In this document: piece after piece, positions 811-63,256 of the stretch
Position numbering within the stretch: the first letter of the stretch is position 1
Layout of the letters: each line of letters opens with the position of its first letter
Assembly: GCA_963828445.1 (NCBI GenBank)
Contig: CAWHFP010000014.1
Span: 37,565 to 101,564 of the forward strand
Source: an uncultured Actinomycetes bacterium
GTDB lineage: Bacteria > Actinomycetota > Actinomycetes > Streptosporangiales > Streptosporangiaceae
Direction of reading: 5' to 3'
DNA length: 64,000 nt
The notes under the pieces: generated by a model
Seen by the model: only the letters and a program-made list of their open reading frames with translations
Database searches by the model: none
Told to the model about the DNA's origin: nothing
Position numbers and translations under genes: made by a program

Positions 811-2148
811 TCACGGGACCAGGCCCTTCGATTGCAGTGCGTTGGTCAGCTGGCCCTTCAGCGACGAGACCGTCCCGGTGGGATTGATCCCCGACGCTGG
901 GAAGACCTGGTGCGAGATGTCGATCGAGACCACCTGGTAGAGCGGCGACTTGGGTCGCACGCTGGCGTTCTGCAGGGCCTTGAGGATGTCGGCGTGCATC
1001 GGGTAGTCGGGGTACAGCTTGGGGTTGTGGTACAGGCTGGTGATCGTGGGCGGAGCGCCGCCGACGGTCGCCCCGAGCAGCTGGTTCTGCGCGTCCCGCA
1101 TGCAGAGCGCGGCCTTGAACGCCAGGTCCCTGTGCTGGGAGTACCTGCTGACCGCGAGGTCCACTCCACCGATCGTCACCTTGGCCGGCGTGCCCGGCAC
1201 GACCTCCGGGTACTGCGTCCACTTGAAGCTCTTGAACAGCTTCGGCTCGTCGGTCTTCATGGACGGATAGACGAACGGGTAGTTCAGCTCGAACGCGGCC
1301 GTGCCCGCCTCCATGGCCAGCCGGTTCTGGTTCTCCATCTGCACGTCCAGCGACGGGTCGGCCGCGTCCGAGCTGGCCAGCTGCTTCATGATCGTCAGCG
1401 CCTTCGTCGCTGACGAGTCCAGCGTGACCTTGGAGCCGTCCGCGTTGAGGATCGAGCCGCCCGCGCTGGCCACCATGGTGTTGAACCAGACCGTGCCACC
1501 CTCGTACTGCGCGCCCTGGATCTCGATGCAGGTGCGGCTTGCCTTCCTTGGCCAGCTTCTCGGCGTCCGCGATCATCTCGGCCCACGTCTTGGGCGGGTT
1601 CGGCACCAGGTCCGAGCGGTACCACAGCAGCTGGGTGTTGGAGTTGTCCGGGGCCGCCCACAGCTGGCCCTTGTACTCCGCCGTCTCCAGGGCCGGCTTC
1701 AGGGTGTTGCCGACCACGGAGGCCTTGTTGGCTGCCGGTCCAGGGCTGCGATCCAGCCGGCCTGAGCGAACTCGGCCTCCCAGGTCACGTCCAGGGCCAT
1801 GATGTCGATCGTGTTGTCGTGCGCGGCCAGCCGCCGGACCAGCTGCTGACGCTGGCCGTCCGAGCCCTGCGGCAGCAACTGATAGGAGATCTTGTACGCG
1901 CCGTTGCTCTGCGCGTCGCAGTTCTTGATCATGGTGTCAGTCGCGCCGGACACGTCCGGGAACTGGTAGAAGTTCAGCGTGACCGGGCCGGTACTGGCCC
2001 CGGCCGAGCTACACGCGGCCAGGGCACTGCAGCCCAGCACCGCGGTGGCCACGGCCGCACCCGTCTTCGTGCGCAAACGCCGGGTGGACCGGCCAAGGAC
2101 CGAGCGCCGTGAGGCGCGCCGGGCCGGAGGATCGGTGGCAGACGTCAT
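811..2148 (-). CDS. Carbohydrate ABC transporter substrate-binding lipoprotein (CUT1), frame broken twice
   Basis: Three minus-strand ORF pieces read as one SBP. Piece 1 (2148 to about 1740): MTSATDPP... lipobox LGCSALAAC ... DVTWEAEFAQAGWIAALD. Piece 2 (about 1735-1530): VVGNTLKPALETAEYKGQLWAAPDNSNTQLLWYRSD...AKEGKP. Piece 3 (about 1530-811): CIEIQGAQYEGGTVWFNTMVASAGG...QSKGLVP. The shift near 1738 lies in a short G run. Confidence 0.8.
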
Positions 2149-27060: not shown

Positions 27061-27148
27061 CGTTTCGCCGCTCCCGGCCTGTCGCTCTAATATGCGGAAC
27101 GAAATGGACGTTACCCCTGCCCACGACGCGCGGACCAGGTAGCCCGGC

Positions 27149-28160
27149 GTGCGCGCGTTCGTCATCACCGGTCCCGGCCAGGCCGAAGTCCGCGACCTTG
27201 AGCCGCCCGAGCCCGGTCCGGGTCAGGTGGTGGTGGACGTGGAGCGGGCCGGGGTCTGCGGTACCGACGTCGAGTTCTACACCGGCCACATGGTGTACCT
27301 GCGCACCGGTGAGGCCCGCTACCCGGTCCGGATCGGGCACGAGTGGTGCGGCCGGGTGATCCGGGCCGGCGACGAGGACAGCGCATCCTGGGTCGGCCAG
27401 CGGGTCACCGGGGACACCATGCTCGGCTGCGGGCACTGCCACCGCTGCCGGAGCGGCCGCCAGCATCTGTGTGCGGACCGGTTCGAGATCGGGATCCGGG
27501 GCGGCTGGCCCGGCGCCCTGGCCGAGCAGCTCCTGGTCCCGGCCTCATCGCTGCTGCCGCTCCCGGACGCCATCGGCGCCACCGCCGGGGCCCTGGTCGA
27601 GCCGGGCGGCAACGCGCTCCGCGCGGTCCGGGCCGCGCAGGTCGCTCGCGGGCCAGCGCGTCCTGGTCATGGGCCCCGGCACGATAGGCCTGCTCAGCGC
27701 CCTGATCGCCCGTTCCCGGGGCGCCGACGTGCACCTGCTGGGCCAGGACGACCGGTCGCTGCGGTTCGCCCGCCGCCTCGGCTTCGATCAGGCCTGGGTC
27801 CGCGACACCCTGCCGGGCGGCACATTCGACGCCATCATCGACGCCTCCACCGGCCGTGAGCTGCCCGCGCTGGCCACCGAGCTGGTCGAGCCGGGCGGCC
27901 GGATCGGCTACATCGGCCTGTCATCCGAGCCCAGCCTGATCGACACCCGGACCCTGGTCCTCAAGGACGTCACCGCCACCGGCGTGCTCAGCGCGTCCGG
28001 CGGCCTGGCCGAGACCATCGCCCTCTACGCCGACGGCGCCGTCGATCCCGAGCCCATCGTCGCCGCCACCGTGGGGCTGGCCGAGGCGGCCACCGTGCTG
28101 GCCGGCCGCCGGCCCCCCGAATGGGGCGACGCCCCCAAGGTGCACATCGACCCTGCTTGC
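27149..28160 (+). CDS. Zinc-type medium-chain alcohol/polyol dehydrogenase, frame broken near 27645; 3' end uncertain
   Basis: VERAGVCGTDVEFYTG...GHEWCGRVI...GCGHCHRCRSGRQHLC, then in another frame GQRVLVMGPGTIGLLSALIARSRGADV...PKVHIDP. No in-frame stop occurs at the expected end. Confidence 0.7.
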
Positions 28161-28295
28161 TTACCCCCACTCGCTCCGGGCGCTCAAGGCGCCGTCTTCC
28201 CTCGTCGCTCTGGCCTCGTTCCTCGGCCATCGCTCCTCAGTCCAGACGGCGCCGCGCCCTTCGCTCGCGGGGCCCCGGAAGTGACCTTCGATAAA

Positions 28296-47813: not shown

Positions 47814-47930
47814 TCAGCCGAGATCAGACGGGTCGAGCACGAAGCGGTAGCGGACGTCACCCCGGTCCAGGCGGCCGAGCGCCTCGTCCACAGCGCCCGA
47901 CGGCAGCACCTCGACGTCGGCGGTGATCCC
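47814..47930 (-). pseudogene. C-terminal stub (about 39 aa) of a zinc alcohol dehydrogenase
   Basis: Own translation: GGITADVEVLPSGAVDEALGRLDRGDVRYRFVLDPSDLG*. Nothing ADH-like lies upstream of about 47935. Confidence 0.5.
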
Positions 47931-48075
47931 GCCGGGCCCTGCTCCGCGACTGCGTGAAGCGCGCCCTGGCTCCCTGAGCCACTGTGACCGGCGGCGCTGC
48001 GCGAAAGGTTGTTATCGCCTGTACGAGCTGGTTTGCGTGCTATTAGGCTCGCTACGTCCCGGCGCGGAGGTGACG

Positions 48076-48387
48076 GTGGGCGGCCATTTAAGAGCGGATC
48101 TGACCCGGATCGGTCAGGTGGCACGGCAGGTGGAACGGATCGCTGACGAGTTTCGGCAGGCCACGACGCTGGCCGAGGGGTATGAGCCGACGCTGGGCAG
48201 CGCGGAGGTCGCGGGCGCGCTGCACAGTTTCGCCACCGACTGGGCGATCCACCGCGCCCGGCTCCTGGACGACCTGGAGCAGGAGTCCAAGCTGGCCGAC
48301 ACCGCGGTCAAGAGCTACCACGGCACCGACGAGGAGCTGGCCGCGGCCCTGCGCCAGCAAGAACAGCAGGAACTCGGGCGGCGGCTG
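48076..48387 (+). CDS. Small EspC/WXG100-like helical protein (putative T7SS-type partner); 3' boundary uncertain
   Basis: GGAGG 5 nt before GTG 48076. HLRADLTRIGQVARQVERIADEF...GSAEVAGALHSFATDWAIHRARLLDDLEQ...AVKSYHGTDEELAAAL (YxxxD). It runs in frame into the next ATG at a GCTGATG junction. Confidence 0.5.
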
Positions 48388-49954
48388 ATGGGGCGCCCGG
48401 CCGACTGGAGCCCGCTGGCGGGCGCCGATCCGGTGCCCGGTGACCCGGATGAGGTGGCGGCGCTGGGGCGCCGGTTCCGGGGCACCGCCGCCGAGATCGA
48501 GCAGGCGGCGGCCCGGCTGCGGACCATGTGCACCGACGAGTTCTGGGACTCCGACGCCGGGCAGGCGTTCCGGCAGCGGTCGGACGACACCGCGGGCAAG
48601 CTGGCTCAGGCCTACGCCCGCTACGAGGCGGCCGCGACCGCGCTGGGCACCGACTCCGGCGACCCGACGCCGTCCACGGGCGCCCAGCCCCGGTACGCCG
48701 GCGCCCTCAGCCAGGCCCAGCGCCTGTCGCTCCAGGCCCTGACGTCGGCTCAGGACGCGGCGGCCACCCAGCGGCAGGCCATGTCCCAGCTGCGCACCGG
48801 CGGTCGCCACCACCACCAGCCTGGCCAGCCCCCGGTGCCGGGCGCCCTCGATCTGTCCGCTGGGCCTGCTCACCCCGGACAGCTCCGGCCATCTGCCGGT
48901 CCGGCCGGGCGAGAAACCGGAGATCACGGCGCTCAAGGGCCGCTACAACACCGCGGCCGACCAGCTGGCCGCGGCCCGGGCCCTGCTGGCCCGGGCCGAG
49001 CAGACCCGCGACCAGGCCGCGCACCACGCGGCCGCTCTGATCAGCGACGTGATCGGCCACGACGGGCTGACCGACGGCTTCTGGGATCACGTCACCAACT
49101 TCATCGACGAGCACGCCGGGCTGCTCAGCGCGATCTCCAAGGTGGCCGGCTGGGTGGCCACCATCGCCGGGACGCTGGCGCTGTGCGTGGGCTGGATCCC
49201 GGTCGTGGGCCAGGCCCTGGCCGCGGTGCTGGGTACGATCGCGCTGGTCGCCAGCGTGGTCCTGCTGATCGCGGACGGGCTGCTGGCCATCGGCGGCAAG
49301 GGCAGCTGGCTGGACGTCGGCCTGGACGTGATCGCGGTGGCCTCGTTCGGGCTGGGCCGGGCCGCCACTGGCGCCGTCAAGGACTCCGCCCTGCTGGCCC
49401 GCAGCACGGCCCGGGGCGAGGGCTTCGAGCGGACGCTCGGGATCCTGATGGGCGACACCTACCTCAAGGGCGGTGAGGAAGCACTGGACCGGGAACTTCC
49501 GGCCGCCTGGGAAGGCTTCCAGAAGCAGGTCGGAGCCTTCGATGAGCAGGAGATCGAGTCGGCCACCGAACACCATCCCGGGCCCTGGCCCGGGTGGGGC
49601 GGCATCATGCGCGGGTTCCACCCGGTGTCGATCCTGCGCGACGGTTTCGCCGACGTCGGCGACCTCAAGCTGTCCAACTGGGCCGAGCTGGGTCAGAGCT
49701 CGACCTGGAAGGGCGCGCGCTTCTTCCTCGGCGACCCAGAGATCCACGAGGCCCTGGCCAGCGTGGACAAGCTGGGCGACCTGGCCACCCTCACCAGCGT
49801 CCGGGGGTTCGTGGCCAACGTGACCAGCAACCACACCATGTGGCAGTACGTCACCACCCCGGCCGTCGCGGTGGACTGGGCCAACCACCTGCTGACCGAA
49901 ACCGGCCTGAAGGACCCGCTGCTGCGCGCCGCCCACCTGGGAGCACCGGGCTGA
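48388..49954 (+). CDS. Large protein with an actinobacterial T7SS-signal-like N-terminal domain, central multi-TM block and unassigned C-terminal domain; frame broken near 48800
   Basis: MGRPADWSPLAGADPVPGDPDEVAALGRRFRGTAAEIEQAAARLRTM..EFWDSDAGQAFRQR...AQAYARYEAAATAL (YxxxE). TM block AGWVATIAGTLALCVGWIPVVGQALAAVLGTIALVASVVLLIADGLLAIG...VIAVASFGLG. The C-terminal 230 aa or so have no family I can name. Confidence 0.65.
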
Positions 49955-50511
49955 TGACCGGGACCGGCCGCCCCCGCGACTACCAGCTGATCGTCCCGGA
50001 GGGCTGGTTCCGCATCGGCCTGGAACCCGGCGTCCGCGAGAAGGCGGTGGCCGCCCTGGTCGACCGGCAGTTCCACGGGGTGGACAACGCTCCGCAGGTC
50101 AAGGCCGAAGCCCGGCAGACGCTGCTGGCCACGGCCCAGGACGCGTTCGGCAACGGGGGTATCGAGCTGTACGTGTCGCTGCAGACCGCGGCCGGTTTCC
50201 CGCTGTCCGCGGCCCTGGTCGTCACCCTGGCCCCGCCGCCCCAGCACCCCGAGGCGATCGTCACGCCGGACCGGCTGGCCCGCACCGTGGCCGGAGACGG
50301 CCGGAAGGTCTCGCTGGTAGAGCTGCCGGCCGGGCAGGCCCTCCGGGTGCGCGGTGGGGATCCCCCCGTCACCACGCTGGACGTGCACGTCCCGGTGCCC
50401 GGCAGCGGCGCGTATCTGCTGCTGTCCTTCTCCACCCCGCTGGCCCCGCTGGCTGATGCCCTGGTGGGTATGTTCGACGCGATCGCCGCCACCTTGAGAT
50501 GGATCCCATGA
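49954..50511 (+). CDS. Hypothetical protein, paralogue 1 (accessory, immunity or chaperone candidate)
   Basis: The ATG overlaps the upstream TGA (TGATG). DYQLIVPEGWFRIGLEPG...VELPAGQALRVRGG...LLLSFSTPLAPLADALVGMFDAIAATL. Confidence 0.6.
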   Translation: MTGTGRPRDYQLIVPEGWFRIGLEPGVREKAVAALVDRQFHGVDNAPQVKAEARQTLLATAQDAFGNGGIELYVSLQTAAGFPLSAALVVTLAPPPQHPEAIVTPDRLARTVAGDGRKVSLVELPAGQALRVRGGDPPVTTLDVHVPVPGSGAYLLLSFSTPLAPLADALVGMFDAIAATLRWIP

Positions 50512-51131
50512 GCCGCAAGCCACGGTACGACCTTGACTTCTCCGTCCCCCGGGGCTGGATTCAGCTGCCGGTCCTGGACAACAAGAACGAGCTCCGCCAC
50601 GACCGGAAGTTGCGGGCCTGGGCCAGCACGCGGGCCCAGCAGATGCTCGGCGCCGGGGCCGCACCGGACCAGCTGGACCGCCGCACCCAGGAGCTGGCCA
50701 CCCTGACCTTCGAGGCCCGGGCCCGCCGGTCCACCTACGCGCTGGCCCTTTACCCCGAGCCCACGGCCGCCCCGCTGGCGTTGCTCGACGCCAGGCACCT
50801 GATACCCGACCGGACCAACCCGGAACTGACCTTCGATGTCCTGCGCGACCTGTACGCCGAACCCGACGCCGACACCCTGGGCGAGGTCGAGGAGCGGCAA
50901 GCGGATCTGCCCGGCGGCCCGGCGCTGCGGGTCCGCCGCAAGCGCGCCGTGAGCGGTGACCCCACCGGGCAGAGCGTCGTCATGGAGGGTGTCACCTGGG
51001 CCATCCGGCCTCCCGGCCTGGACGACGCCATCGTCATGATCATGACCTGGACCGCCCTGCAGGCTGGTGACCGGCTCGCGGCCATGGCCGACACCATCGC
51101 CGGGACCGTCAAGGTAACGGACGAGCCGTGA
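50508..51131 (+). CDS. Hypothetical protein, paralogue 2
   Basis: ATGA overlap with the previous gene. YDLDFSVPRGWIQLPVLDN...ADLPGGPALRVRRK...VMIMTWTALQAGDRLAAMADTIAGTV. Same motif order as paralogue 1. Confidence 0.6.
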   Translation: MSRKPRYDLDFSVPRGWIQLPVLDNKNELRHDRKLRAWASTRAQQMLGAGAAPDQLDRRTQELATLTFEARARRSTYALALYPEPTAAPLALLDARHLIPDRTNPELTFDVLRDLYAEPDADTLGEVEERQADLPGGPALRVRRKRAVSGDPTGQSVVMEGVTWAIRPPGLDDAIVMIMTWTALQAGDRLAAMADTIAGTVKVTDEP

Positions 51132-51150: not shown

Positions 51151-53760
51151 TCAGCTGGGGGCCATGTCGACGAAGCGGCTGTAGTGGCCCTGGAAGGCCA
51201 CGGTCACGGTGGTGGTCGGGCCGTTACGGTGCTTGGCCACGATCAGGTCGGCCTCACCGGCCCGAGGTGACTCCCGCTCGTACACGTCCTCGCGGTGCAG
51301 CAGGATCACCATGTCGGCGTCCTGCTCGATGCTGCCGGACTCACGCAAGTCGGAAAGCTGCGGCTTCTTGTCCGTGCGCTGCTCGGGACCCCGGTTGAGC
51401 TGGGACAGGGCGATGACCGGAACTTCGAGCTCCTTGGCCAGCAGCTTCAGCGACCGGGACATCTCGGAGACTTCCTGCTGACGGTTCTCGGTCCGTTTGG
51501 GCGAGGACATCAGCTGGAGGTAGTCGATGATCACCATCTTCAGCTCGTGCCGCTGCTTGAGGCGACGGCACTTGGCCCGGATCTCCATCATCGACATGTT
51601 CGGCGAGTCGTCGATGAACAGCGGGGCGTCGGCCACCTCGCTCATCCGGCGGGCCAGCCGGGTCCAGTCATCGTCGCTCATCTGGCCGGTACGCATGGTG
51701 TGCAGGCCCACCCGGGCCTCGGCCGACAGCAGACGCATGGTGATCTCGTTGCGGCCCATCTCCAGGCTGAAGAACGCCGTGGTCAGCTGGGTCTTGATCG
51801 CCGCCGCGCGGGCGAAGTCGAGGGCCAGCGTCGAGTTGTGCGTGGGCACCATTCCCCGGCCGGCAAGGTACAGGTGGTCGGCGTTGTTCACCTGGACGCA
51901 GCGAACCGGCACGGATGCGATTGGCCGCACCTCGGTGATGTACCGCCACCGCCTGCGCTGCGGCGAGCCACGCAGCCGTTCCCGCTGCACCCTTGTCTTG
52001 CGGCTCAGCCGGAAGACCTCATCAGTGGTGGTGAAGTTCAGCAGGTAGCAGATTGACGATTTCTCAGATCGACCGTGTACCCGCTTCCGTGCCATGGAGC
52101 AGCGATACCCCAGGCTCAGCACCAGTTCCCGGACATCCATGGCCAGGCGCTTGCTCGTGACCGCGAACTGAACAGCGCCGACGTTAGTGACCGTGCCGTC
52201 CGTATCAAGCAGGCCAGCGAGCAAGGACCGGCGCTGCTCGGCCGACGCCCGCAGATAACTAGCCGGGATGTGCTTGTTACCCAGCACATCCAATGATCGG
52301 AGGACACCTTGGAGCGTTCCCGATTCCTTCCAGCATTGCTGGCACAATCCCCTGCCGGGCAGAAGGCCAACCATGGAGCCGCCGCATTGGCGGCATTGCG
52401 GTGTGGGTACCGGCGGAGTGCTGAACCGGGCCTTTCCTCCGCACGAACGTCCACAGGTCCGCACCGCCGAAGTCCTGGGAGCGAATGAACGTCCACACAC
52501 GGCGCACTCTCGAGTCTTCGGCAGAATCGGCGTCGGTGCGAGAGTCATGCCGTATCTGAGCCGAGCACGCTGTGGGGTGACGACAATGCCCGTCGCGGTG
52601 ACATGCTCCACGACTTCCGGGTCGGCCGAAGTGAACTGGGCGGCCTTGGACGTCCCGTCGCCCAGCCATACGCCGAGCGCGTAAGGCGGTACGGGCAGCT
52701 CAGCCTCAGGCATTTCCAGGGGCGCCGTCAACGGCACGGCGTGGTTGAGCCTGCCTTCCGCTCCGGGGCAGCGCAAGGTACGCAGAATGTCCGCGGTGGT
52801 AACGACTTCAGGACGCACCGGCTCCGCATATTCCCTGCCGAGGCCTCTGTCCTGGGCGTCGTATCTGCGCGCCCGGCGTGTCCAGGTAAGCCACTGATGC
52901 TGCTCGTCGGCGATGATCACTTCACCATCCGAGAACTTCACTTCGTAGCACGGCCGACCGACCATGATCTCGGTAGCCGCAACGACCTTCGTGGGCTTAC
53001 CGTCCATGCCCAGCAATTGGTCACCGACCTCGACGTCCTTCATCGTCGTCCAGCCCGTCGGTGTCGCGAGTGGCGTATCGAGGGCCAGTGCCTTACCCAT
53101 AGCGGGCCGGGCCGCGATGACGATCATCTGGCCGGGATGGAGCCCGTTGGTGAGCGAGTCGAGGTCGGCGAACCCGGTCGGCACGCCGGTCATCGCGCCG
53201 CCGCGGCTGCCGATGGCCTCGATCTCGTCCAGCGCGCCCGGCATGATGTCGGCCAGCGAGTGGTAGTCCTCGGTGGTCCGCCGCTCGGTGATCGCGTACA
53301 CCTCGGCCTGGGCCCGGTCCACCAGATCGTCGGCCTCGGCGTCGCCGGTGTAACCGAACTGGACGATGCGGGTGCCGGCCTCCACCAGCCGCCGCAGGAT
53401 GGCCCGCTCCCGGACGATACGTGCGTAGTAGCCGGCGTTGGCCGCCGTCGGCACCGAGGCGATCAGCGTGTGCAGATAGGGCGCGCCGCCGACCCGGCCG
53501 ATCTCTCCGCGCCGGGTGAGCTCGTTGGCCACGGTGATCGCGTCCGCGGGCTCACCGCGCCCGTAGAGGTCCAGCACCACTTCGTGGATGATCTGGTGAG
53601 CCGGGCGGTAGTGGTCGTGCGGCCGGATGACCTCGATGACATCGGAGATGGCGTCCTTGGAGAGCAGCATCCCGCCGAGCACGCACTGCTCCGCGGCGAC
53701 GTCGTGCGGCGGCGTCCGCTCGAACTCGTCACCGCGGCGTGCGATCTCGGCGACACTCAC
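51151..53760 (-). CDS. dnaB: Replicative DNA helicase DnaB, interrupted by an intein in the Walker A motif
   Basis: N-extein PHDVAAEQCVLGGMLLSKDAI...GLHPGQMIVIAARPAMGK. C-extein STLALDFARAAAIK...FFSLEMG...IIDYLQLM...IALSQLNRGPEQR...SDLRESGSIEQDADMV. GTG start preceded by GGGGAGGAG. Confidence 0.95.
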   Translation of the reverse strand: MSVAEIARRGDEFERTPPHDVAAEQCVLGGMLLSKDAISDVIEVIRPHDHYRPAHQIIHEVVLDLYGRGEPADAITVANELTRRGEIGRVGGAPYLHTLIASVPTAANAGYYARIVRERAILRRLVEAGTRIVQFGYTGDAEADDLVDRAQAEVYAITERRTTEDYHSLADIMPGALDEIEAIGSRGGAMTGVPTGFADLDSLTNGLHPGQMIVIAARPAMGKALALDTPLATPTGWTTMKDVEVGDQLLGMDGKPTKVVAATEIMVGRPCYEVKFSDGEVIIADEQHQWLTWTRRARRYDAQDRGLGREYAEPVRPEVVTTADILRTLRCPGAEGRLNHAVPLTAPLEMPEAELPVPPYALGVWLGDGTSKAAQFTSADPEVVEHVTATGIVVTPQRARLRYGMTLAPTPILPKTRECAVCGRSFAPRTSAVRTCGRSCGGKARFSTPPVPTPQCRQCGGSMVGLLPGRGLCQQCWKESGTLQGVLRSLDVLGNKHIPASYLRASAEQRRSLLAGLLDTDGTVTNVGAVQFAVTSKRLAMDVRELVLSLGYRCSMARKRVHGRSEKSSICYLLNFTTTDEVFRLSRKTRVQRERLRGSPQRRRWRYITEVRPIASVPVRCVQVNNADHLYLAGRGMVPTHNSTLALDFARAAAIKTQLTTAFFSLEMGRNEITMRLLSAEARVGLHTMRTGQMSDDDWTRLARRMSEVADAPLFIDDSPNMSMMEIRAKCRRLKQRHELKMVIIDYLQLMSSPKRTENRQQEVSEMSRSLKLLAKELEVPVIALSQLNRGPEQRTDKKPQLSDLRESGSIEQDADMVILLHREDVYERESPRAGEADLIVAKHRNGPTTTVTVAFQGHYSRFVDMAPS
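51835..53091 (-). mobile_element. 419-aa intein (class-3-like, Ala1) with a LAGLIDADG homing-endonuclease domain
   Basis: Inserted between GK and S of GxxxxGK|S. It starts ALALDTP. Block B reads ADEQHQW, block F VPVRCVQV, and it ends VPTHN|S. LAGLIDADG motifs LGVWLGDGTS and LAGLLDTDGTV. By eye it has more A/T than the flanking dnaB sequence. Confidence 0.85.
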
Positions 53761-60127: not shown

Positions 60128-62988
60128 CGCAACGGGATCACCGGCACGAGCAGGACCGAGCCGCCCAGGGCGGCCGCGCCGTTGTTGGCCGGACCACCGC
60201 CCCCGCCGTTGCCGTTGGGGTTGTTGCAGTTGGGGTTCTGGAACGGGTTACAGGTCGGCGCCGTGGTCGGCTGAGTGCTGGGGAAGCCGCCCAGCGACGG
60301 GGTCGGTACCGGCACCGACGGGACCGACGGCGGCGTGAAGTGGTGGTGGTGCGGCTGGGTCTGGGTCGCAGTGGGCGTTGGCGTCGCGGTGGCCGGCACG
60401 CCGTCGGCCCCGAACATGTTCCAGGCGGTGCCGGAGAACTCCGGGGTGGGGAACTGCTGGACCGGCAGCGACGCGAACGCGTCCTCCGCGAACGAATGCC
60501 AGATCCGGGCCGGCCAGTAGCCACCGAAGCCACCGCCGACGTTGCCGCCCAGGTTGTCCAGGGTCTCGGTGTTCTTGTTGCCATGGGCGTCGATGTTGCC
60601 CTGGTTCTGGACGAAGATGCCCACGGTCAGCGCGTACTGCGGAATCGCGCCGATGAAGAACGCCGATCTCGAACTGTCGGTGGTGCCGGTCTTGGCGATG
60701 ATCGGACGGCCGTCGTCCATGGCCGCCGCAGTACCGGTGCCGTTGACGGTGTCGAACGACATCGCGTACTGGACCTGCGAGTCCTGCGCCGGCGTCAGCA
60801 CCTGAGCCGTCTTTACCGTGGCCGTCTTGTTGATGGTGGCCGAGCTGATCTGCTGGATCAGGTGGGCGGCGTGGTAGGTGCCGTTGTTGTCCAGCGTGGC
60901 CAGCATGGTGTCCTGCTCGTTGACCGACAGCGACGCCTGTGCCCAGGGCCATGCCGACTTGGCCGATCTCGCCCTGCAGTCCGGAGCCGCCGCCTTGACA
61001 TAGGACTTGACGTTGACCCCGAACTGCTGCGGCCAGGTTGACCACGTTCTGGGTGCCCACCCGGTGGATCAGGTCGGTGAAGGCGGTGTTGGACGACTGG
61101 GCCTCGGCGTGGGCCACGCTCATCGGCCCGTAGTCGTCGTTGTTGTCGTTCTTTTCCTCGAACTAGCCTTCGACCGCGTCGGTCTGGGAGCGGGCCGCGG
61201 GCGTCATCCGCTCGCTGTCCGGGCGGGATCCACAGCGGGCTGTACCCGTCCAGCTTGGTGGTCTGCACGTTCATGCCCTGCTGGACCGCGGTGGCCAGCA
61301 CGTACGGCTTGAACGAGGAACCCACCTGCTCGCGCTGGAGCACGCTGTTGAGCGTGCAGGTGTTGTGGCAGTCCTTGGCGGACAGGTTCTCGCCCGGGAC
61401 CGCCGTAGAAGGCGACGATGGCGCCGGTCTGCGGGTTCTGCAGCTCCGCCCCGATCATGGCGTAGGACGGAAGCGCGCCGCCGTCCTCGGCCATCTGCTT
61501 CACGTTCGTCGTTCACCGCGTGAGTACAGCTGGTCCATCATCGGCTTGCTGAGCGTGGTGACGATGCGCAGGCCGTCGTTGTCCCACTGGGCCGAGCTGA
61601 GGTGGTAGTCGGCCTGCAGTTCGTTCTTCACGATGTCCAGGACGTACTGGTCGTACGTGGACCCGAGCCGGACGTCTGGTCCTGCGGCTTGAGCGTGGCT
61701 GGGGAACTTCAGGCTGGCCGCCTGGGCCGCGCTGATGTCGCCCATGGCGACCATGCCGTTCAGCACGTAGTGCCAGCGGTTGACCAGAGCCGCGCTGGCC
61801 CGCCGGGGTCGGGTAGTAGCTCGGGCTCTGGATGATGGCCGCGATCTCGGCGGCCTGGGCCACGGTGAGCTGGCTGGCCGACACGCCGAAGTAGGTCTTG
61901 GCCGCGGCCCCGACCCCGTAGGCCCCGTTGCCGAGGTAGATCGTGTTCAGGTAGTTGGTCAGGATCCAGGCCTTGGACTTCTCCTTGGCCACCTTGAGCG
62001 CGACGAAGATCTCCTTGATCTTCCGGGTCGCGGTCTGCTGGGTCCCGATGTTCGCGTAGTAGTTGCGGACGAACTCCTGGGTGATGGTCGAGCCACCCTG
62101 CAGTGAGCCCTGGCTGCCGCCGCTGTTGAACACGTCCTCGTAGGCGGCCCGGACGATGCCCCTGGGCGAGACCCCGCCCTCGTTGTAGAAGCTCCGGTCC
62201 TCGGCCGCCACCACCGCGTCCCGCATGTAGGGCGAGATCTGGTTGTAGGTCAGCAGCTGGCGGTCGGTCGTGCCGAGCGTGCCGGCCACGGTCTTGCCGT
62301 CACTGAAGTAGACGGTGGACTGCTGCTGGGTCGCGGCCTGGGCCGCGTCCGTGGGGACCTGGGTGGTGGCGTAGGCGTAGCTGACCCCGGCCACCACGAG
62401 CAGGACGAAACCGCCGAAGCCGGCCGCGGCCACGCCGATGGCCTTCTTCCACGTCCAGTGCCGCCACCAGCTGCCCTTGACCTTGACCCGGTTCGGGCCG
62501 GTCCCGGTGCCACGGCCACCGCCCCGGCCGCCGTTCCCGCCGCGGCCATTGCGCGGGCCGGGACCACCGGGGCCGCCTCCATTCGGACCGCGGCCGCCCG
62601 GACCGCGACCACCGGGAGTGCGGCCACCTGGACTGCGGCGAGGGCCGGTCCCGTAGCCGTCGCTGTACTGGTCCGCCGGCCGCGGCTCGAAGCGGGGCCG
62701 GGCCGGCCGCTGGCGGTCACCGGCCAGCTGCGCCTGGTTGTCATTGGGAACCAGGCGCGGCCGAGGCCGTTCGCTGGTCGCCCGCTGCGGCGGATAGCCG
62801 TCATCCCGGCGCCGTCGGCCCGCGTAGGACCCGGTGTTGGCGTGGGACCCGGTACCAGGACGCGGTTCCGCGTTCTGGTACCCGCGCGGCCCGTTGCGGG
62901 AGCCCGCGTGTTCTGGCCACCGCTGGTCGCGGTCCCAGCCGTCGCCCGGCTGCGACCCGTACGGCCCACTGACGTCTCTGCTGCTCAC
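60091..62988 (-). CDS. Class A penicillin-binding protein (transglycosylase/transpeptidase), at least 5 frame breaks
   Basis: GT51 motifs AAEDRSFYNEGGVSPRGIVRA, GGSTITQEF, RKIKEIFVALKVAKE. TP motifs lie in other frames (REQVGSSFKPYVLATAVQ, KTGTT in ...IIAKTGTTDSS). The N-terminus is Gly/Arg/Pro-rich. The pieces are ORFs 61513-62988, 61500-61766, 61204-61503, 60858-61343 and 60091-60906. Confidence 0.85.
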
Positions 62989-63256
62989 ACATCCTCGCTG
63001 TTAGCTGAGCGGAAGCGGCTAGGCAGCACCGCCGAAATCTAAACGGTACCCACGGGAGTCTGCCGCCGCTGGCACGTCCGCCCTATCGCGCCGTCGCGAT
63101 TCCACGTGCCTTCCGGTGCATTTCCTGTGACTTACGGTGTTATCTAATGGGCCTCGCGTTACTCCTGTGACCCGCAAGCGTTGCGGGCGCTGCGGCTCAC
63201 ATTAGCTATTTCCGGGGCCAGGTCCCCGCGTCAGCCAGCTGACGGATTGGTTACGC

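Follow-up and report, generated by a model that had tools for sequence, protein, structure and literature searches.

What do four closely coupled genes at positions 48076-51131 of an actinomycete contig encode, and could they form a substrate unit of a protein secretion system? The genes lie on the forward strand of a 64,000-nucleotide stretch (the window) of contig CAWHFP010000014.1, in the assembly GCA_963828445.1 of an uncultured member of the Streptosporangiaceae. This genome comprises 6.66 Mb in 40 contigs, has a GC content of 71.5% and is about 89% complete. A preliminary description of this DNA, made from the sequence without database searches, had regarded the genes as an operon resembling effector cassettes of the T7SS (type VII secretion system). 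The tight coupling that it reported was recovered: genes 1 and 2 meet in a TGATG (48386-48390), as do genes 2 and 3 (49952-49956), and the junction of genes 3 and 4 is an ATGA (50508-50511). Another possible ATG of gene 4 lies at 50499. Gene structures were read against L009, a Joint Genome Institute (JGI) metagenome contig that is 97% identical across the operon and carries four intact genes; the true products are 105 (gene 1), 520 (gene 2), 185 (gene 3) and 210 (gene 4) amino acids (aa) long. The closest homologues of gene 2 were found in soil and mine metagenomes, some of them labelled Trebonia or Streptosporangiaceae. We propose, with moderate confidence, that these genes make up an orphan cassette for a substrate of an actinobacterial type VII (ESX) secretion system. 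Profile or structure tests upheld the elements of the earlier T7SS effector-like reading, in which export, toxicity and a helper role are putative and read from sequence.

The T7SS assignment is based on family-level tallies and on profile-profile comparison, because single copies from the window remain under threshold; Pfam and NCBIfam scans of the four products of the window gave sub-threshold matches only. Among 54 full-length homologues of gene 2, eight matched PF21725 (T7SS_signal; best E value, 4.8e-11) and ten matched WXG100_2. The profile of the gene 2 family aligned over 183 columns with the T7SS_signal domain of an Rhs toxin encoded in the same genome (hhalign, 95.6%; E = 1.2e-8), a domain that itself matches PF21725 with an E value of 5.8e-78. 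These results support the previous view that the N-terminus of the gene 2 product is of the T7SS-targeting type. It had also been described as carrying a W-x-G-like turn followed by YxxxE; the turn is present as W-D-S and residues R78 and Y79 are conserved, but the YxxxE (Y76..E80) is not. The AlphaFold2 model of the gene 2 product is all-helical, with an N-terminal bundle of helices at residues 20-47, 56-86, 103-144 and 176-223, mostly with predicted local distance difference test (pLDDT) values >85.

Gene 1 encodes a helical protein with a C-terminal YxxxD, as initially described. The motif reads Y-H-G-T-D in the window. When 49 homologues were aligned, Y83 proved invariant, as did F28, F54, W58 and R62 among others, and the conservation of D87 was at least 90%. 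The same alignment shows no W-x-G turn, as W58 sits in 'D-W-A/K-I-H-R' and no G follows two residues later. The proposed WXG/EspC-like character was supported at the level of the family, in which T7SS_ESX_EspC (PF10824) was matched by 43 of 49 members (best E value, 5e-6), WXG100 (PF06013) by 33 and EspB_PE by 25. A profile search against PDB gave weak matches to the PE region of EspB and to EsxA. Gene 1 resembles the WXG-less partner of WXG100 pairs, and its product is probably a co-secretion partner or targeting factor for the gene 2 product.

A secretion substrate of this kind would be served by ESX machinery. No ESX core genes occur inside the window, in line with the earlier remark that EccB/C/D/E and MycP genes were missing from it. 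The suggestion that they be sought elsewhere in the genome led to a canonical ESX locus on a different contig (C8:212105-227719), which encodes EccB (E = 1e-64), EccD (E = 3e-82, together with YukD), EccC and a mycosin-like S8 protease. The EccC scores over the TIGR03924 cut-off and is frame-split at about position 222965. The Rhs toxin, 1548 aa in length and with a full T7SS_signal domain, belongs to this locus (C8:212681-217324), and a gene 1-like protein of 191 aa is encoded upstream of it (hhalign, 75%; E = 2.5e-5). A second, divergent cassette of the source genome (C9:272631-281656) adjoins a frame-broken ATPase of the EssC/EccC type with a forkhead-associated (FHA)-like part, a WXG100 gene and two genes for small transmembrane (TM) proteins. 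The C9 genes may represent a variant form of the T7SS that differs from the canonical ESX system.

The conservation of the cassette was surveyed in species genomes of the Genome Taxonomy Database (GTDB), where 151 loci encode relatives of gene 2, and the best 80 of the 151 were examined. These 80 loci belong mostly to Streptomyces, with others in Wenjunlia and in metagenome-assembled genomes of Pseudonocardiaceae and Nocardioidaceae. In 77-80 of them, gene 2 is surrounded by genes 1, 3 and 4. The order is either gene 1-gene 2-(TM protein)-gene 3-gene 4 or gene 1-gene 2-gene 4-gene 3; two or three cassettes often stand in tandem at one locus, and orphan copies exist. A divergent FtsK/SpoIIIE ATPase of about 1500 aa, similar to EssC/EccC, is encoded near the cassette in 52 of the 80 loci. 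The example in L027, the locus studied in detail, has an FHA-like N-terminus, its best NCBIfam match being EssC with a sub-cut-off score of 572 bits, and a bona fide WXG100 gene lies alongside. Streptomyces cassettes in which gene 2 has a C-terminus of the window type carry an extra gene between genes 2 and 3, encoding a multi-TM protein of about 450 aa that has no Pfam match (L014:9445-10878, and corresponding positions of other loci). This protein, which the window cassette lacks, is a candidate for membrane-bound immunity. As regards expression, contigs of a soil metatranscriptome run cover most of 48005-49100 at 90-99% identity.

The survey also bears on whether these are ordinary housekeeping membrane proteins in synteny with the dnaB/rplI region, a case that the preliminary description had itself raised. 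The cassette does adjoin dnaB here and in L010, a 75%-identical relative. However, there is no dnaB within 8 kb of the cassette in L011, L013 or any of the Streptomyces loci, and gene 3 was present in just 6 of 401 genomes sampled over the phylum and in a minority of the sampled genomes of the best-represented genus. The patchy spread, together with the adjacency to dnaB in one close relative only, indicates that the cassette is an accessory element rather than a housekeeping one; its paralogous copies and its T7SS signal homology argue in the same direction. The housekeeping explanation was therefore rejected as extremely improbable. The patchy distribution fits what is expected of an accessory effector.

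The part of gene 2 that follows the signal domain encodes a hydrophobic hairpin at about residues 246-300, then an amphipathic helix and C-terminal helices, the last of these modelled with pLDDT values of 60-82. Three to four TM helices had been counted previously; in fact two helices are strongly hydrophobic and a third is amphipathic. Each of the 97 homologues with a length of 380 aa or more has the hairpin, and invariant residues of this region include G260, W268, P270 and G273. The C-terminal part varies from 125 to 195 aa among homologues and falls into two large sequence classes and a few small ones. It had been called unassignable to any family, and it has remained so: a sequence-profile search of gene 2 against PDB returned coiled-coil noise only, and a Foldseek search of PDB with the whole 520-aa model as query gave a best E value of 0.64.

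Genes 3 and 4 are distant paralogues, as was suspected: their family profiles align over the full length (hhalign, 98.9%; E = 1.6e-17). No Pfam or NCBIfam match, DUF1795 (PF08786) included, was obtained for either family (50 members each), and a sequence-profile search of PDB with gene 3 found no match. The 306 homologues of gene 3 are annotated as hypothetical throughout, and the gene 4 family has 559 cluster representatives among 1.84 billion proteins. A lone paralogue of gene 4 with 37% identity is located at C1:246116-246775, a contig on which no homologue of genes 1, 2 or 3 was detected. AlphaFold2 modelled the gene 3 product with a pLDDT of 89.3 and a predicted TM-score (pTM) of 0.85. 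When this model was compared with PDB by Foldseek, the top 30 or so matches were nearly all of the Mog1/PsbP-like fold (E values from 2.5e-4 to 1e-2; TM-scores of 0.42-0.58), including 3lyd (an uncharacterised Jonesia protein), LpqN, PsbP, MTC28, Mog1p and DcrB. Further matches were Tsi3, an immunity protein of the T6SS (type VI secretion system), and the DUF1795 chaperones EagT6 and SciW. The gene 3 product is therefore predicted to adopt a Mog1/PsbP-like fold. When the sequences were read by eye, no N-terminal hydrophobic stretch was seen in the product of gene 3 or gene 4. A natural fusion (P0320, 426 aa) joins a gene 3-like and a gene 4-like domain in one chain, which suggests that the two proteins act jointly. 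Another protein, P0255 (506 aa), has two gene 4-like domains and additional sequence at its C-terminus.

Eag (DUF1795) proteins, the chaperones of prePAAR effectors in the T6SS and known from the EagT6-Tse6 and SciW-Rhs1 pairs (PDB 6xrf and 6xrr), likewise belong to the Mog1/PsbP-like fold class, are cytoplasmic and are encoded beside a secreted effector that bears TM helices. Eag chaperones bind the TM helices of their effectors, and gene 3 has a parallel context, since the hairpin is present in every gene 2 homologue of the set above and gene 3 stands beside gene 2 in 80 of 80 loci. By this analogy, the gene 3 product is a candidate chaperone of the hydrophobic hairpin of gene 2. The differences are that there is no sequence relation and that the secretion system is another one; moreover, Eag proteins form a homodimer and act on an N-terminal hairpin of the effector, whereas the cassette has two paralogues and a central hairpin.

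A possible alternative, which we rate below even chance and which is compatible with a T7SS substrate, is that the products of genes 3 and 4 are not export chaperones but immunity proteins that protect the producer against the gene 2 product. Both genes lie directly 3' of the putative effector gene, as in toxin-immunity pairs, and Tsi3 is among the structural matches. Across cassette classes gene 4 diverges far more than gene 3, in step with the variable C-terminus of gene 2, as an immunity gene might. Gene 3, on the other hand, is highly conserved, with 42-55% identity between the source genome and Streptomyces. Judging by their appearance as soluble proteins of the cytoplasm, both would be remote from the probable site of action, a membrane to which access is from the outside; two paralogues per effector and their natural fusions also fit poorly with immunity, and the separate multi-TM protein of the Streptomyces class would suit that role better.

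Under the substrate reading that we prefer, the following course of events can be envisaged. The gene 1 product would pair with the N-terminal hairpin of the gene 2 product into a four-helix bundle, which would present a composite W-x-G/S and YxxxD signal to an EccC-type ATPase, and the complex would be exported. Before export, the products of genes 3 and 4 may form a cytoplasmic Mog1/PsbP-fold heterodimer that keeps the gene 2 product soluble, gene 3 shielding the hydrophobic hairpin and gene 4 perhaps the variable C-terminal domain; such a helper pair would parallel the Eag chaperones of T6SS effectors. After export, the gene 2 product would insert its conserved hydrophobic hairpin into a membrane, most likely that of a competitor, as a pore-forming or depolarising effector, and less likely into the envelope of the producer itself.

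Several observations weigh against this reading. The gene 2 product of the window and its intact homologue P0001 lie below the Pfam gathering score, matching only WXG100_2 with 17-20 bits against a cut-off of 27, and the gene 1 products of the window and L009, taken alone, gave sub-cut-off matches to DUF6507 (E values from 1e-3 to 1e-2) and DUF6317 and a weak one to WXG100. The likeness of gene 3 to Eag chaperones is modest and at the level of fold only (TM-scores of 0.35-0.5; E about 6e-3), and the Mog1/PsbP-like fold also occurs in the immunity protein Tsi3 and in unrelated lipoproteins. Mirror-tree correlations of genes 1, 3 and 4 with the regions of gene 2 all fell between 0.79 and 0.91, reflecting shared phylogeny; the top region was the N-terminus for gene 1 and the TM region for gene 3, with gaps too small to use, and the correlations do not discriminate between models. 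No known toxin domain and no Pfam match were found in the C-terminus of any class of gene 2 among the 54 homologues. Column conservation is 0.73 in the hairpin region of gene 2, 0.66 in the N-terminal hairpin and 0.50 in the C-terminus; the TM region thus exceeds the C-terminus in conservation, an unusual pattern among classic polymorphic toxins. In the window cassette, neither a membrane immunity candidate nor an immunity gene was identified. Secretion, toxicity and chaperoning are all inferred from sequences and models.

The last of these genomic points, on the toxin domain, the conserved hairpin and the immunity gene, would be expected if the gene 2 product were not a toxin but a membrane component or client of a T7SS-like machine built around the FHA-EssC-like ATPase and the WXG100 protein, or an envelope or developmental factor, with the products of genes 3 and 4 as cytoplasmic adaptors. 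Streptomyces cassettes usually adjoin the genes for this ATPase and the WXG100 protein, and in complete Streptomyces chromosomes the cassette lies mid-chromosome, which would suit such a function. A machine component, however, would hardly be expected in multiple tandem cassettes and orphan copies, or in so few genomes of the phylum and a minority of its best-represented genus. The N-terminal domain, moreover, is of the same kind as that of the Rhs polymorphic toxin, and the C-terminus comes in several divergent classes. We consider this explanation unlikely, and retain that of an exported substrate.

As assembled, genes 1 and 2 are broken. Compared with L009, the sequence of the window contains one additional C at about 48373. 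It stands 13 nt 5' of the stop of gene 1, so that the TGA is out of frame and gene 1 is fused in frame to gene 2. In gene 2, a surplus C at 48797 is offset by a surplus CC at 48820-21, leaving 9 aa instead of 8. A surplus G at 48859 has no such compensation and shifts the frame by +1, so that the TM and C-terminal part is read in the frame 48743-49954. The outcome is a single open frame that sets in 5' of gene 1, takes in the start of gene 2 and ends at 49476; its later half is off-frame. The preliminary description had pointed to trouble at 48380-48390 and 48790-48840, and both spots are real, as extra bases relative to L009. The contigs of four further public runs, including one metatranscriptome, are all without the extra bases. 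A scan of GC phase at third codon positions (GC3) for same-strand frame switches without a stop detected 203 switches in the 6.66-Mb source genome (about 30 per Mb), five of them in the window with the operon among these. In control DNA, consisting of actinomycete loci mostly from Streptomyces genome assemblies, two were detected in 1.23 Mb (1.6 per Mb), a rate about 19 times lower. Frameshifts in conserved genes of the window (a Zn-alcohol dehydrogenase, a PBP transglycosylase, an ABC substrate-binding protein and a histidine kinase) were confirmed by inspection, and both T7SS ATPases elsewhere in the source genome are also split by frame breaks. Frame-split genes of the window are located at 27143-28199 (+), 61516-63000 (-), 814-2100 (-) and about 21600 (+). 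A bias in the direction of the switches was weighed as possible evidence of systematic error but discarded, as off-frame stop frequencies favour the detection of +1 events.

Because relatives lack the extra bases and the genome-wide rate of switches is far over that of the control, the breaks in genes 1 and 2 are, judging from these sequence comparisons, very probably insertion or deletion (indel) errors of the assembly. The contrary view is that the operon is a genuine decaying pseudogene, with real frameshifts, a lost gene 1 stop and a truncated gene 2 product. Four indels inside 500 bp, none of them within a long homopolymer, and an orphan site adjoining a truncated alcohol dehydrogenase stub would agree with decay. 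The four comparison runs, moreover, represent related populations rather than the source sample; no indexed run contains the exact sequence, the best one having 0.59 of the sampled words of the window. Yet these populations are all intact, the remaining 2.3 kb of the operon is without an indel and 97% identical to the intact relative, and the elevated switch rate affects conserved genes and EccC as well; a pseudogene is accordingly rather improbable. As the assembly is indel-prone, other apparent fusions and pseudogenes in it need further evidence before they are trusted. Coordinates of the features in the window are listed in Table 1.

Table 1. Coordinates of the cassette genes and of the regions of gene 2 in the window.
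Feature	Position	Strand	Basis
Gene 1, EspC/WXG100-like helical protein, ~104-105 aa	48076..48388	+	Gene model against L009; TGA at 48386-48388
Gene 2, putative T7SS substrate, 520 aa in relatives	48388..49954	+	P0001 intact, 94% identical; indel-broken here
Gene 2 N-terminal helical domain, ~residues 1-225, WXG100-like hairpin with W-D-S turn	48388..49066	+	PF21725 homology
Gene 2 hydrophobic hairpin, then amphipathic 'GxGSWxDxxxD' helix, ~residues 240-330	49109..49381	+	Conservation, AlphaFold2
Gene 2 C-terminal domain, ~190 aa, all-helical by prediction, no family match	49382..49951	+	AlphaFold2
Gene 3, 185 aa, predicted Mog1/PsbP-like alpha/beta sandwich	49954..50511	+	AlphaFold2 and Foldseek
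Gene 4, 210 aa (207 aa from the ATGA start at 50508), distant paralogue of gene 3	50499..51131	+	hhalign

Two neighbouring features differ among relatives. Immediately upstream of the operon, a C-terminal stub of a Zn-alcohol dehydrogenase gene is present on the reverse strand (47814-48011); 157 bp of this region (47848-48004) are missing from the 97%-identical L009, so the stub is polymorphic among close relatives. Downstream, the dnaB gene (51151-53760, reverse strand) encodes an intein that is absent in the 75%-identical L010 (L010:6788-8134), whose dnaB aligns contiguously over the insertion point, residues 1-228 being joined to 642-868.

The cassette can be compared with several known systems. 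Polymorphic toxins with a PF21725 domain, such as the Rhs toxin on contig C8, share with it a homologous helical domain at the N-terminus (about 225 aa), a small helical partner that is encoded upstream and bears YxxxD/E, and an ESX core in the genome. They differ in their payload, which consists of Rhs repeats or an enzymatic toxin in place of a hydrophobic hairpin and a 190-aa helical domain. The window copy, in addition, is under the Pfam threshold and is followed by two genes of the Mog1/PsbP fold, with no recognisable immunity gene. In mycobacteria, the espA-espC-espD and espE-espF-espH operons of ESX-1, which lie off the core locus, encode a small protein of the EspC type, a larger substrate whose N-terminus is WXG-like, and an accessory protein about 185 aa long. 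The same three kinds of protein are found here, the gene 1 family matching PF10824 as given above. The gene order, the hydrophobic hairpin of gene 2 and the host, a monoderm soil actinomycete, are different, and no sequence similarity of genes 2, 3 and 4 to EspA/E or EspD/H was detected. As in EsxA/EsxB (ESAT-6/CFP-10), a pairing of two helical hairpins is predicted, with a turn of the W-x-G type on one and YxxxD/E on the other; unlike in that pair, one partner is formed by the N-terminal part of a membrane protein of 520 aa, gene 1 is without a WXG turn and gene 2 has W-D-S.

In the T7SSb, LXG toxins are accompanied by Lap targeting factors, and the membrane-depolarising toxin TspA has a polytopic membrane immunity protein, TsaI (PMC9600955, PMC7456083). 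Common features are an N-terminal helical targeting domain, small upstream helical co-secretion partners and a membrane-active C-terminal part, a putative one in the cassette. The phylum, the machinery and the protein families are different, TsaI is a polytopic membrane protein whereas the products of genes 3 and 4 look soluble, and no LXG or DUF3130/DUF3958 matches were found in the cassette. AesA/AesB (PMC13622651) is, with PF21725 toxins, LXG-Lap and EspA/EspC, a known parallel of a T7SS effector and its targeting partner. A survey of T7SS subtypes (a-j) reported T7SSd, in Olsenella and Bifidobacterium, as the only new actinobacterial type and does not mention Streptomyces (PMC11217815). 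Literature searches on PF21725, T7SS_signal and DUF6507 returned no relevant paper, the umbrella-toxin papers do not mention Esx, and no description of a TM-hairpin payload with a pair of Mog1/PsbP-fold paralogues was found in the literature searched.

These comparisons lead to a broader proposal, which we put forward tentatively and regard as somewhat doubtful. Genes 3 and 4 would encode a Mog1/PsbP-fold pair of T7SS chaperones that shields the TM hairpin of an exported effector, convergent with Eag. The cassettes would constitute widespread, patchily distributed membrane-inserting T7SS effectors of Streptomyces and related actinomycetes, served by an FHA-EssC-like ATPase system outside the subtypes a-j of PMC11217815.

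T7SS effectors outside mycobacteria and Bacillota are little known, and so is the handling of substrates with hydrophobic helices by the T7SS. The cassette brings together, as a compact and testable set, a partner for the signal, a putative effector whose hairpin is conserved and two helpers with a fold that serves in other systems to chaperone TM helices. Genetically tractable Streptomyces have homologues, and the homologues of genes 3 and 4 are all annotated as hypothetical and belong to no domain family. If the proposal is true, the Mog1/PsbP-fold pair would be T7SS chaperones for TM hairpins, and the cassette family would represent a class of membrane-inserting effectors.

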